Assembly: GCF_026210795.1 (NCBI RefSeq)
Contig: NC_089429.1
Coordinates: 372,001-436,000 of the forward strand
Source of the DNA: Rhizophagus irregularis
Taxonomy: Eukaryota
Length of the DNA stretch: 64,000 bases
Direction of reading: 5' to 3'
In this document: positions 13,704-23,412 of the stretch, in pieces
Layout: each line of letters starts with the position of its first letter
Numbering within the stretch: position 1 is the first letter of the stretch
The notes under the pieces: generated by a model
The model's input: the letters and a program-made list of their open reading frames with translations, nothing else
What the model was told of the DNA's origin: nothing
Databases searched by the model: none
Program-made: the position numbers and the translations under genes

Positions 13704-16366
13704 ATGTCTGAAGACGCTTATACTTCTGAATCAAAGTATTGGGAACAAAATTTTATAGCGATGCCATTCTTTGATCAATCTGAAGAATGGAGCCTCTTAA
13801 ACTTCCTAAAGTACCTTGACTCGGTGAAGAGTTTGGACGACCGTTCTGAAGCACATCATAAGTATAAACTTCTTTTGAATAGTATCAAGGATAATAAAGA
13901 AATGTCGGAAGAAAAAGAAAAAAGGCTAAACAGGCACTGTTAACTTACGAATCAACAGTTAAGTATTTTTTTTATTATTATTCAATATTATCGTCTAGAG
14001 GAAGGAGGAAGGAGTGTCGGTTGAGGCTGAAGAACCCTGCCATCGAGGTGGTAGGCACTCGTGCTAGGTTGAGGCTGAAAAACCTCCGTCGAGGCGGAAG
14101 GTGCACCTCTGGATTGTTTTTAGGCGCTTAAAAATAAGTACCAGACAACCTCAATAAATTCTAACAACTAACTATTTCTTTGGCTTTTAGAATGAATCCC
14201 ATTCTTCCGAGATCAGAGAATTTTGGCTTCGAATATCTCTTAATGAAAAAGCTACGAAAAGTACCAAAAGAATTATCGACCAAATTAATATAGTACAAGA
14301 TGAAGCGAGCGATATTTTAGTTCTCTGCAAGAGGGACAATCTTATGAGACTACGATCAGGTATTTTATTGTTAGATTTATAGCTTCTCATTATTTTTCTT
14401 TGTTGACTCAGTTGATTTTTTACATTAAATAGATTTTGAAATTGGAGAAAATACCGAAGAAGATGGTGGACTGGCAAAGGTATATAATAAATCAAGTAAA
14501 CAGCGCATTGCTCAAAAATAATGACCAAACTTATGTTATAGAATAAACCTGTACGGCCATCCAACGAAGACCCTTCCAACCTTTCTAATGGTGATGACTT
14601 TTCCAAGGATGACGACCTTTTCGATGACGACCTTTTCGATGGCAACGACCTTTCCAATGATGGCGACATTTCCGATAATAACAATGATGGCTTTTCTAAT
14701 GGGTTTAAATCAGAGAAAGGTGAGGAATGTGATTTACTGAGTTACGTGAACCATATTCACAGAAAATTTTAAACGAAGGTATAAAATTACCAGCTTCTAA
14801 TAAACGAGAAAATGAGACCGAAAGAGACGTATCTACATGCAAAAAGGTAAGTAATTATAGGTGGTAAAAGCTACAAGAACGTAAAAGCTCATGTACATTT
14901 TTCTATATTTAGGCAAAAAAGAGCGTGAAGAATGATTCTCAACCAAGAAACGGAAGGTCATCCACCGAGCCTCTTCTCTCTTCTGATGAGAGTAACAAAG
15001 AACATAATGAAGACGATACGGAAATTAAAGTTGATCTACCAAGTATTTCAACCGAATTGCAACGTGAACCGATAGTCAAAGTATTATACATATTAAATTT
15101 TGATTCTTTTACTACATGTACCTTACGGTTTGCTTCTGTTTTTCAGTGGGAAGTTGGCCACATCAATGTGACCGATCGGTTTCGGCAGTACCAGAAGGAA
15201 ATTATTAATAAGGCGGAAATGAAAGGGTTGAAATACGACAATATATACGAACTCTTGTATGTACTCTGAAAATATAACACAACGATTTTACTAAGCATCT
15301 TTTTCTTATACTTAGAGCTTTGTCATCGATTATTGTCCTCTCTTGGCCATGACCATATCCTTCCTTGTTTACAATTCAAGAATGGAAAGAAGTTACAAAA
15401 AATAATCCTTATACTGTTCAAGAATCCTCACTTTCACCAGACATTTTGTCATCTCTTAATGAAGCATCGTTTAACCATTTTCTCGAAAAGGACGCATTTA
15501 TGGAAAGTGGAAAATCGAAACTAAGTAGACTAGCTGCACGATCGTTTAATGATTTGTATGTAATATAATTTTGTAATATATACATGAGATTGTAGCTTAT
15601 ATAATTTTTTTTCCGTCGTAGATATGACAGTATCATGAAGACTGCTCCGTTAAAATTGTCCTAAGAAGAACATTGTCTACACTTCGTCTACCCAATTGCT
15701 CGCCCATTTTTCGTTGGTGAGAAAGAATACGATTTAGTGTTAAACCGTTCTAATTCGGGCTCTAGAAAAAGACCGGACCTTTCATGTGTGGTGAATGGTG
15801 TACCGATTCTGAATTCGGAATTTAAACCTTTGGGAAATACACCGTTACAACGAATGAAGGATAGGCTGAAGGCGCAGTTAAGGGCTCGAAAATCCATTAA
15901 TCAACAATTACAAAATAAGGGAGGTCCGGGCGAAGCTGTAATATTTTTAAACATGGGTAGGTGAGAGAGATTGCATGAGAATTTATTTTTATATATATTG
16001 ATTTATTTTCTGCGATAATTAGGCGACTTAATGGAATCTTATTCTATGGATCTTAAGTATGACGGTTTATACCGTTCCTGGCCATTCCTCACTACCAGGC
16101 TGGTAGTTGACAAGACCATGATTCCGCTTGCAGGAGTTGCGATCCATCACTTGGTATCTTTAGAGGTATATGTCACATTTCCTTGTTTATAATAAGAAAC
16201 ATCACTTAATTTCATTTGCCCTTTACAATTGCAGGAGCACGTTGAACGGATAGCAAAGGATTATAAATATAGAGCATGTCGTAGTGGTAATACTACACCG
16301 ATCGAGCAAATGTCTTTTATGCGTAAATTTCCAGACTCACCACAAGTAAAAAAATTGATTCATTAA
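13704..16366 (+). pseudogene. Multi-exon Crinkler-like gene: N-terminal helical domain, acidic linker, C-terminal PD-(D/E)xK nuclease fold; apparently disrupted
   Basis: N-terminal FFDQSEEWSLLNFLKYL. C-terminal RKRPDLSCVVNGVPILNSEFK (PD...ExK). Many GT-AG introns. Frameshift in an A-run near 13915 and in-frame TAA at 15662. Confidence 0.7.
13991..14150 (+). ncRNA. Structured RNA element in intron 1: two tandem three-way junctions with GAGG-containing loops
   Basis: Unit 1 GAGTGT[GGTT-GAGGCTGAAG-AACC][CTGCCAT-CGAG-GTGGTAG]GCACTC. Unit 2 repeats the loops with different stems (TCCGT/GCGGA). Enclosed by TCTAGAGG/CCTCTGGA. Mismatches are G-U on the + strand. Confidence 0.65.
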
Positions 16367-16492
16367 ATTGGGGTTGGTTCATTAATTAGATTTAGATTTG
16401 GTGTATTCAGATTAGATAGCATAAATATATCTTTACGCTTATTGCTGTCATTAACAAGTCAAATATTCTAATTGTGCATTTTTTGATATGTA

Positions 16493-21073: not shown

Positions 21074-23412
21074 ATGTCGCACAAATACTTCGACCGCGAT
21101 TCCTCCAATTGGAATATATTAGACTTTTTGAATGCGTGTGACGTGGAGCCATTTGACAACAAGATAGATGTTTACCTAAAATCTCTTGAAATCATCTTTG
21201 ATCAAGAGCTAGGCACCCGGAGGGAAAAGGCGCGAGAGCACCTTGACAATTAATTATTTGTTTTATTTTATTTGTCCTTTGCATGGCTCCGGACAATTAT
21301 GTAGTTTAAAGGAATTGAACTCAGGGTTTGTGTATTCATCACCAGTGGGCGCTAGAACGGCAAGTAATAGTTTTCTTTTTTTGTGACATGACGAAGACTT
21401 TCTGGGTCAACGTCAAAAGGCTTCTGGCTGAGTCACAAAACCGGTGCTAGGCACGTGGGCTTTCTGGGTTTCCCGTGTTAAAGGTTTCTGGCTGACCTAG
21501 CATCGGTCCCATCGGGACACGTGGGGCTTTCTGGGTTCCCTGTGTTAAAGGTTTCTGGCTGACCGGTGGGGTATATGAAAATAGTTGAGATTTTTACTAA
21601 TTCAGAAAGTTTGTTATTTTTATATTTTAGGGAAGTGATCGCACACTTGCTAAAAAGTGGAATAAAGCGCGTAAATTGCATAAATCAAGTGGGACAACAA
21701 TTAACATTAATAATTCAGCAGTTTCTGCAATAAATGGAATAATACATGGCGGAATGGTCAATGGCAAAGCCTCCATGTCTAAGAAAAGAGATCACGAGGT
21801 ATTCAATTTTTAGTTAATCAGTAAAGTTATTTAATGCTAATGCCAATATTATTTTATGGTATAATGATTATTTGGCCTTGCGCTTCTATAGGACGAAATA
21901 GATAAATTTTTTCAAAGTCCCAATGATCAACAACCCAATCGGTTTAATAAGAAACTGCGAAAATCAGAGGCCACAGATGAATGTAAATGTGCACCGCAAA
22001 TTAACGATGATGACGATGATGAAATAGATAAAGAGATGTGTGAAGCAAGCATGTTAGAGTTCGAACGTACATTTCAAGGAATGCGAAAGGAAAAAAAGTG
22101 GTTTTTGGAATCGGGGAAATGTGTTGAGGACGAGTTGTATGCCTTCGGAAAACAATGCCAATTTGAACAGTATGTAAGGATATATTAAATTATTTTATTG
22201 CTATGAAATTTCTAATATATAATTTGCGTTTGTTTTCAGTTTGGCACATTCTTTCGTTATCGACCCCGATGACGAAACCTACTATCAAAACAAAGTGTTT
22301 ACTTCCGAAGAACTCGAAGAGATTCGTGAGACAGAATCAAAAGATCTTCCTAAGATGCCGATCGAATTATTGAAATATATCAGCTCTTTCCGAACGAAAA
22401 CAACGGAAAAATTACGGATAATGCTTGATAAACGACAGAACTGGGAAGGCAAAAACTTTGACAAGACCAAACACTTTGATTTTGACTGGATAAAACATAG
22501 CGTTCACAGTTTATTATTAGAATTTGAGTCCGGCACATTAAAGCAAAATCACTTGGAAACGTGGTACAATATCCATATCTGGTCACTAATAGATAAATCC
22601 TTCAACGAGTTAATAGGGGTGGATGTTGCCAGAGGGGAGTCGTGTAGCCTTGCTTCTGCGAAACGTAAAAATAAACATAGAGTTATTCAAGGATTGGTCT
22701 CAACAACACGAAAAGCACTCGGAAGAAGAGGTGATTTAATCTTAAGAAAAGGAATGTACGAATACGGTGCTTCTGAGGTTGGAAAGGACTACGAGGGAGA
22801 TAATGGGACAAAGTTACTTAGAGAAAGGGGTCTAAAAAGTCCGAAGATGCTTAAGGACATGTTGGTAGATTTGGGCAATTATATAAAGTGGGAAAGAAAT
22901 AAATTACGTCAATTGGAGCTAGTAAGCTTCATTCATGCTGGTAGTATGCTTTTAATCTGCCTATGATTTTGATAAATTTTGCCATAAATATTAACTATAT
23001 TATTATACAGGTCTTTTCATGATTTTATTACGTATTGATGCTCCTGCCGGCTATATGTGTAGAATAACGAGATCGAATACCAACCGATGTAGGATGTTTT
23101 GAGGAAGCTCTCAAATGTATGGTTTTGACTTGGAAAGCAAAGGTTAGTATCATACTATGTCATCACATCAATAGGATTCTGTCAAATACCTAACTATCTC
23201 AAAAACTTTAGGCGATTGTCCGTAAAACAATTGGTGTTATTGAAGGAATTAATGACGATGATGATGACTATGATGTATTGGAGAATTTGCAAGAAGCTGG
23301 TGTCCGTAAGCGTAAGGATTGTATCATTATTCCTAACTGCGTTAGGACTCCACAAAAAAAGCGGACAGTCCCGCAAACGTCGCAAGTTCGAAAAAAGAAG
23401 GAAAAGGAATAA
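21074..23412 (+). pseudogene. Second Crinkler-like gene with the same architecture; exon 1 broken by a ~100 bp insertion
   Basis: MSHKYFDRDSSNWNILDFLNAC N-terminus. C-terminal GRRGDLILRKGMYEYGASEVGK...KMLKDML (REase-like D...E motif). Probable GC donor (ACG|GCAAGT) near 21360, acceptor at 21630. TAA at 21251 is caused by the insertion. Confidence 0.7.
21379..21571 (+). ncRNA. Structured RNA element in intron 1: three tandem three-way junctions, each with two TTCTG-loop hairpins
   Basis: Outer stems TTTTGTGAC/GTCACAAAA, CCGGTGCTAGG/CCTAGCATCGG and TCCCATCGG/CCGGTGGGG differ in sequence but all pair. Invariant CTTTCTGGG and AAAGGYTTCTGGCTGA in each unit. Confidence 0.75.

Follow-up and report, generated by a model that had tools for sequence, protein, structure and literature searches.

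What does a repeated, structured RNA do in the first intron of a predicted nuclease gene? The question is raised twice in a 64,000 nt stretch of the Rhizophagus irregularis genome (contig NC_089429.1, positions 372,001 to 436,000; the window, whose own numbering is used below), by gene 1 (13704–16366, + strand) and gene 2 (21074–23412, + strand). An earlier note, made from the sequence alone, had described the two as a divergent pair sharing a helical N-terminal domain (the header), a first intron with tandem three-way-junction RNAs, and a restriction-endonuclease-like C-terminus. The comparative analysis reported here points to header and intron words as a portable module, in which the header would bind its own word and brake splicing at a weak donor, limiting a predicted nuclease; we give this reading a probability of about 0.47. 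Its core, direct binding of the header to the word in its own intron, appears quite probable on the same comparative grounds. The system is apparently undescribed, as no earlier report of the RNA or of the residue-letter code set out below was found in literature listings and the openings of abstracts, searched without subscription papers and supplements.

Structured first introns in the two window genes

Both genes have the proposed architecture of helical header, phase-0 intron 1 (donors GTTAAG at 13958 and GCAAGT at 21360) and nuclease-like C-terminal half; the term "divergent" holds for their sequences, the orientation being the same, with both on the + strand. The parts referred to below are as follows:

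13704–13957, + strand: gene 1 exon 1, family-1 helical header (FF..W.L..FL), with a frameshift in an A-run near 13910–13925
13958–14190, + strand: gene 1 intron 1, phase 0, donor GTTAAG, 41% GC; annotated models join at the same ends
14012–14060, + strand: gene 1 three-way-junction unit A, two YGAGG-capped hairpins
14061–14107, + strand: gene 1 three-way-junction unit B, two YGAGG-capped hairpins, stems unlike those of unit A
14191–16366, + strand: gene 1 later exons, acidic linker and restriction-endonuclease-like domain (RPD..E.KP in 15665–15958); premature stop at 15662
21074–21252, + strand: gene 2 exon 1, 5′ part, family-2 helical header (YF..W.I..FL)
21167–21169, + strand: gene 2 codon of header residue D32, which predicts loop letter 4 (D with U; word UUCUG)
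21253–21352, no strand assigned: insertion of ~100 bp disrupting gene 2 exon 1, borders approximate
21360–21630, + strand: gene 2 intron 1, phase 0, GC donor GCAAGT, 44% GC
21383–21436, + strand: gene 2 junction unit 1, UUCUG loops at 21400 and 21422
21441–21506, + strand: gene 2 junction unit 2, UUCUG loops at 21462 and 21486
21508–21570, + strand: gene 2 junction unit 3, UUCUG loops at 21529 and 21553
21631–23412, + strand: gene 2 later exons, conserved D..A..W helix, linker, KW.L..G..VED, restriction-endonuclease-like domain and basic tail; frameshift near 23075

Intron 1 of both genes (232–271 nt, 41–44% GC) is three to four times as long as the other introns, eight of which measured 63–94 nt with 20–31% GC. 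The tandem junctions and the differing loop words were both recovered, with three units and UUCUG loops in gene 2, and two units and YGAGG caps in gene 1. In gene 2 the word TTCTG occurs six times, which none of 3000 shuffles reached, and the fold energy gave a z of about −2. In gene 1 the word GAGG is present at 14023, 14045, 14071 and 14091, in two junction units whose fold is the minimum-energy fold of its own stretch, and four such capped hairpins appeared in 2 of 3000 shuffles, in a test designed after the pattern was noticed. The gene 1 fold is less secure than that of gene 2, and two results speak against it: its energy was no better than that of shuffles (z 0.17), and the fold of the whole intron differs from the two-junction form. 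A covariance model of the gene-2 RNA did not match the gene 1 intron even with filters off, and the two RNAs thus share a plan, not a model. Rfam gave no match over either window intron (expect value, E, up to 5), nor over the introns of 10 of the 39 header loci described below (E up to 1). A hammerhead ribozyme was rejected, CUGAAGA being present without the GAAA core (by eye) and Rfam also being negative.

A conserved three-way junction behind the header

The header is a domain of 60–70 residues, and the model of the family-2 header, the type found in gene 2, was all-helical with a predicted local distance difference test score (pLDDT) of 95.7. A profile built from 11 header sequences matched 312 clusters at 50% identity, the best 150 of which were listed; named members of the family belong to Rhizophagus, Gigaspora, Dentiscutata, Funneliformis, Ambispora, Paraglomus and Geosiphon. 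Scanning metagenomes with a header codon pattern returned 56 loci, of which 39 were kept (header E ≤ 4e-14), several of them duplicates or near-duplicates, and 17 were set aside as chance; viral contigs, scanned twice, yielded no relatives. No clear structural match was obtained for the family-2 header (best E 1.9; best Z 5.1), which is no proof of a new fold, the PDB sequence search was empty, and Atlas gave no usable header match. Homology between the family-1 and family-2 headers is weak (hhalign probability 13%, E 0.002).

Searching with a small-hairpin pattern picked 59 candidate units; 13 of them proved misplaced, cut or duplicate on visual inspection, and the remaining 46, from 22 genes, were kept. 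From the plain alignment RNAalifold obtained a three-way junction, with changes on both sides in 12 of its 15 pairs. In the 46-unit alignment, 87% of the cells of an 18-pair structure were paired, compared with 34–44% for slid partners, and 16/18 pairs had changes on both sides; the three pairs of the small hairpin are biased, since this hairpin was part of the picking pattern, and the other 15 are not. Cells with G-U outnumbered those with A-C (155 versus 26), which favours the RNA of the sense strand. The covariance model matched 30 of the 32 header loci having at least 300 nt in view (21 of these 30 were in the model seed) and none of the 17 chance loci, with the matches lying on the sense strand, directly after exon 1, 138–286 nt past the YF motif. 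The two loci missed were L008, where the intron is absent at the site, and L010, which breaks off. The motif, whose retention in intact paralogues the earlier note had proposed to check, is present in 30/32 metagenomic header loci, and the comparative evidence is strong that the gene-2 RNA is a real family, conserved across the Glomeromycota.

In L008 the header is joined directly to exon 2 in phase 0, followed by a partial header repeat, and this locus is either a spliced transcript or an intron-less copy. The introns of L002 (133–507) and L028 (2709–2933) are expanded to more units; exon 1 of L002 is frameshifted, and its words drift from UACG towards UAUA or UAUG, as CpG decay would give. 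Header and intron together are closely alike across genera (21074–21630 compared with P0004 and P0014; 13704–14190 with P0015 and P0018), the genera being Gigaspora, Dentiscutata, Funneliformis and Racocetra, with a header identity of 73–89%; the value is 89% for a Gigaspora protein and 89% for a Funneliformis protein. This likeness may reflect transfer between fungi.

Gene-specific loop words

In each gene a pentaloop word of its own recurs in two hairpins (P2 and P3) with different stems, in up to six loop copies per intron. The words were tested on 24 genes with 48 units, the long-hairpin loops being picked by stem score, blind to the short hairpin. Identity between the last four letters of the long-hairpin loop and the short-hairpin loop was 0.83 within genes and 0.34 between genes, a contrast that none of 100,000 permutations reached, and the own gene was best or tied in 20/24. 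Over 90 loops, constancy within the gene was seen for letter 2 in 87, letter 4 in 86 and letter 5 in 84; letter 3 was constant in 72, with mostly C/U swaps. Tandem duplication of units was rejected as the sole cause of the shared words, because the stems of P2 and P3 differ. The earlier note had taken the loop words to be family-specific: they do differ between genes, but with 22 different words among the 24 genes they are specific to single genes and not to two families. We regard the comparative evidence for gene-specific words as strong.

Header residue 32 predicts the fourth loop letter

The loop sequence also tracks the protein, as had been anticipated. Header residue 32 was associated with loop letter 4 at a z of 8.3 (0/3000 family-wise over 244 column-by-letter tests), with a pairing rule of D with U, E with G and G with A; in the training genes U stood with D in 9/9, A with G in 5/7 and G with E in 5/8. 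In many database proteins the reading of exon 1 continues into the intron, which allows the loop to be decoded from the peptide. Such held-out peptides were readable in 24 cases, of which 3 were removed for their closeness to training genes and 6 because the letter was ambiguous, leaving 15; all 13 with D, E or G fitted the rule (p 1.5e-5), and the 2 with Y have U. Several of these peptides had been inspected by eye before the decoding patterns were written. None of the 6 ambiguous peptides contradicts the rule.

In leave-one-out prediction, residue 32 was correct in 34/39, the next column in 25 and the nearest neighbour in 28. Among pairs 40–50% identical, the letter was shared in 98/104 with the same residue and in 44/334 with a different residue, and on the best tree made without the code columns there are 10 changes of residue class, 11 of the letter and 11 of the two jointly. 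Family-1 read-through peptides have the word GAGU where R replaces the H of the window gene, in the column aligned with residue 32, which suggests a second family-1 word linked to R, from two small groups and a weak alignment. Together the sequences give good evidence for a putative protein–RNA code, which is not proven on the tree.

The RNA follows the header and not the nuclease-like domain

The C-terminal halves of long proteins formed 13 BLASTP groups, 11 of which are preceded by a family-2 header and 4 by a family-1 header. The C-terminal domain of gene 1 is also found behind family-2 headers, and a family-1 header with the gene 1 intron peptide also precedes a gene-2-type domain. Since the header and RNA module fronts 11 C-terminal groups, the RNA tracks the header, not the nuclease. 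One of the two roles proposed in the earlier note, an RNA antitoxin co-diverging with its protein, needs correction on this point: the word co-varies with the N-terminal header and the nuclease half is swapped freely, which argues against a type III-like antitoxin matched to the catalytic domain.

A restriction-endonuclease fold of the C-terminal halves is suggested at the level of a lead. By eye, D..E.K-type motifs can be recognised in many of the domains, and gene 1 has a PD..E.K-type motif with an HSDR_N match below the cut-off (E 0.0016); D350, E359, E364 and K376 are invariant in the C-terminal half. Structure neighbours in Atlas were PDDEXK_12 and HSDR_N, with template modelling scores of 0.45 and 0.71 by row, but 0.41 and 0.33 by query. 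The full-length protein model (pLDDT 40.6) is too poor for fold assignment. The C-terminal parts of genes 1 and 2 align over 67 columns with 92% probability, and the basic C-terminal tail of gene 2 resembles a nuclear localisation signal.

Weak donors and a sign of intron 1 retention

The donors of both window genes had been called weak, and this is a trait of the family: of 28 family-2 donors, 15 were GC, 8 GT, 2 GG, 1 GA and 2 other, and GC donors normally make up ~1% of introns. The intron-1 donors of L039, L011 and L044 are GG and GA with a perfect AAGT; these may be real, because read-through peptides with GS (6) or ES (4) recur there. When intron 1 is retained, an in-frame stop follows within 2–60 codons in 27/27 loci. 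In RNA contigs from four runs, splicing was seen at four of the later introns in gene 1 and at three in gene 2, and one contig (14094–14357), spliced at introns 2 and 3 of gene 1, keeps the 3′ part of intron 1, since it starts inside that intron.

Self-binding and its alternatives

We propose that the header would bind the loop word of its own intron in the pre-mRNA, and that the bound header would repress splicing at the weak intron-1 donor. The unspliced message would then go to decay or yield a header-only peptide, and the predicted nuclease would thereby limit its own production, provided that the C-terminal domains are active, harmful nucleases. Self-binding is the simplest account, because a private word matches a residue of the neighbouring exon's product, and a brake the likeliest effect, because the word sits beside a weak donor, ahead of a predicted nuclease.

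Several observations weigh against this proposal. The direction of regulation is not readable from sequence, and the evidence for retention is a single contig from a broken gene. Exon 1 was uncovered in all 4 RNA runs, in which the genes had small shares; the absence of an intron-1 joint carries no weight for the same reason. The header has no known RNA-binding fold in structure comparisons. The pairing rule has exceptions among the training genes (3/8 G-word genes have D, G or S; 2/7 A-word genes have N or R), the link of letter 5 with residue 43 is borderline (family-wise p 0.049), and none of the column-by-letter tests yielded a determinant of letter 2. The header tree is weak, with 5/36 inner branches well supported and 1–2 independent pairs on those, and the independent-pairs test is without power on it; letter 4 shows a kinship signal (13 changes versus a shuffled mean of 18).

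A doubtful but serious alternative makes the RNA a nucleus-bound antidote. These fungi grow as coenocytes, in which nuclei share a cytoplasm; the shared protein would enter any nucleus, while the intron, whether retained or excised, would remain in its nucleus of origin and soak up the protein via the protein's header. Damage would fall on nuclei that lack the gene or have a different word, which would be a selfish drive among nuclei and is compatible with splicing feedback. The up to six sites per transcript are consistent with this, as is a diversity of 22 words in 24 genes like that of self/non-self systems, and because this diversity is high, conflict is a better fit to it than housekeeping feedback. 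The nuclease half is interchangeable, as expected for header-mediated immunity, gene 2 has its basic tail resembling a nuclear localisation signal, header and intron are near-identical in distant genera (89% for Gigaspora, 89% for Funneliformis), and the accessible text on the Spok drivers has them killing by a predicted PD-(D/E)XK domain (PMC6660238). However, more than 100 residues of linker part the header from the nuclease, and binding of the header need therefore not inhibit it; no convincing RNA-only locus was found, two long loci having nuclease-like frames downstream (by eye), and the few RNA sites per gene may not match the protein output. In its fullest form this would be a eukaryotic polymorphic toxin system with RNA self-immunity, in which hundreds of nuclease genes would have private RNA barcodes, each barcode would be read by a small new RNA-binding domain via a residue-to-base code, and nuclei with the matching intron would be spared, giving nuclear drive; we consider this whole picture equally doubtful.

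Self-binding itself might be absent, with host splicing factors reading the RNA or the RNA acting alone, the residue-32 link reflecting shared ancestry, and gene conversion evening out the loops. Exon 1 and the intron are co-inherited, and the poorly supported tree, the kinship signal of letter 4 and the 28/39 predicted by the nearest neighbour also speak for this reading. Yet one column far beats kinship (34/39, and 98/104 versus 44/334 when identity is held within one band), changes of residue class coincide with changes of letter on the best tree, loops match across hairpins with differing stems, and 22 words would be needless for a host factor, making this explanation unlikely.

The same evidence for binding would serve an on-switch, in which the header aids splicing of a weak GC, GG or GA donor, or exports the unspliced RNA, for which Rev/RRE provides a likeness. 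The GG and GA donors (3/28 loci) would need help if in use, and the retained form would encode a header-only peptide. We rate this as improbable, as positive feedback on a predicted nuclease would be risky for the cell, and the GG and GA donors may be decayed copies.

The RNA might also serve a mobile element as a signal for packaging or targeting, bound for retrotransposition by the element's own product, or act as a guide for the nuclease. The nuclease-like domain, the high copy number and the transposon-rich surroundings suggest this, but it is very improbable: many introns are kept where mRNA-based copying would lose the RNA, Pfam scans of relatives gave no reverse transcriptase or transposase domain, and five letters are too few for a guide. 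Pairing of the loops with the own gene was rejected, complements of the own word not being enriched nearby (19 versus 24.6 in shuffles).

Relation to known systems

Conserved intron structures have been proposed to bind the gene's own product in fungal RPS13, lysyl-tRNA synthetase and ribosomal protein genes (PMC8216456), and the window family resembles such splicing-autoregulated genes in having a conserved intron structure as proposed site for its product. Those described in the accessible part of that source are single housekeeping genes with one fixed motif, whereas here the module is portable, stands before many nuclease-like domains and holds as many as six copies of a private, residue-linked word.

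With type III toxin-antitoxin systems (ToxIN, CptIN and TenpIN), in which a repeated structured RNA in the nuclease transcript varies with the cognate protein (PMC3401426), the family shares a repeated structured RNA in the transcript of a predicted nuclease. As far as the accessible account goes, the type III RNAs are pseudoknots upstream of an endoribonuclease that they inhibit, in contrast to three-way junctions in a spliceosomal intron that track a separate header. No Pfam or Rfam match to a ToxN-, CptN- or TenpN-type endoribonuclease was obtained among the sequences scanned.

CR (Crinkler-RHS) proteins combine a header with a restriction-endonuclease-like C-terminus and show domain shuffling, and unrelated helical headers have been described for them (PMC5289972); the window family resembles them in its header, its shuffled domains and its putative restriction-endonuclease-like C-terminus; the CR protein literature consulted for comparison, in its accessible part, does not mention an intron RNA. 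The CRNs of R. irregularis, on the available description, have a ubiquitin-like header with LFLAK/LxLWKV (PMC6131194), whereas the header here is helical and LFLAK/LxLWKV did not occur. There were no Crinkler Pfam matches in the 8 + 10 + 19 sequences scanned, the header matched no Pfam family, Crinkler members made up 17% of the Atlas structure-neighbour cluster, and the N-termini were hydrophilic by eye. The label "Crinkler-like" given in the earlier note is therefore apt in the loose sense of a header with a nuclease-like C-terminus; these are not strict Crinklers, since they have a helical header, in place of a ubiquitin-like one with LFLAK/LxLWKV and HVLxxP motifs, and no Crinkler Pfam match. 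They may be members of the CR class in its broad sense, helical headers included.

The single-gene poison-antidote drivers Spok and wtf are comparable in the predicted PD-(D/E)XK-type domain and the many paralogues. Spok, in the accessible text, is one gene with a predicted PD-(D/E)XK killer domain, self-protection, paralogues and cross-species transfer, its resistance lying in a kinase domain and its 5′ UTR (untranslated region) intron being dispensable (PMC6660238); for the window family, no kinase Pfam match was found in any full-length relative scanned.

State of the window genes and their surroundings

The damage that the earlier note had seen in both copies is present, as a frameshift and a stop in gene 1 and an insertion and a frameshift in gene 2. 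The exon-1 frameshift of gene 1 was identical in 4/4 DNA runs, and the damage to gene 2 looks recent, because the annotated allele of another strain lacks the breaks of the window. In the gene 2 insertion (21253–21352), an A-rich tail and, on the − strand, a B-box-like word were noticed by eye, which suggests a short retroposed element; no full copy of it was found elsewhere in the window or the loci, and there was no tRNA call. In existing annotation the two genes are either listed as uncharacterised or carry a zinc-finger name that was given automatically. A database protein under the name Rhizophagus irregularis matches the large exon of gene 2 with 100% identity, and this exon has relatives in other Glomeromycota, Geosiphon and Jimgerdemannia. 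The DNA runs contained no close paralogue of the gene 1 intron, and the window had no convincing occurrence of the header motif beyond genes 1 and 2.

The window is rich in transposon remains. Between the two genes lies a foldback element (16491–17921) with inverted arms of 142 nt at 77% and 30 nt at 97% around ~490 nt, and a decayed zinc-finger element (19000–20400; DUF4379, E 4e-4) whose relatives among RNA contigs are <90% identical. Remains of hAT-like, BED-finger, Tc5, DDE_3 and MULE transposases occupy 42777–55691 and 61653–63986. On the − strand are a receptor-like leucine-rich-repeat protein with a hydrophobic stretch (964–2589), a kinase gene with repeated MLKL N-terminal domains (26882–30696) and a TET/JBP-like oxygenase frame (39225–40295; E 0.001, below the cut-off).

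Implications

The findings point to an RNA-binding domain, small and undescribed, for which nature supplies many protein–RNA pairs, apparently without overlap, and a readable code; this combination is rare, and useful as a toolkit. They also suggest a role, open to test, for a large set of mycorrhizal-fungus genes that lack annotation and whose first intron is often misread by gene callers. With private words, each of hundreds of paralogues sharing a cytoplasm could regulate itself independently of the rest, and a newly arisen copy could escape repression by those already resident. If the intron were instead a nucleus-bound antidote, the family would provide a molecular handle on how nuclei compete or coexist in one cytoplasm.

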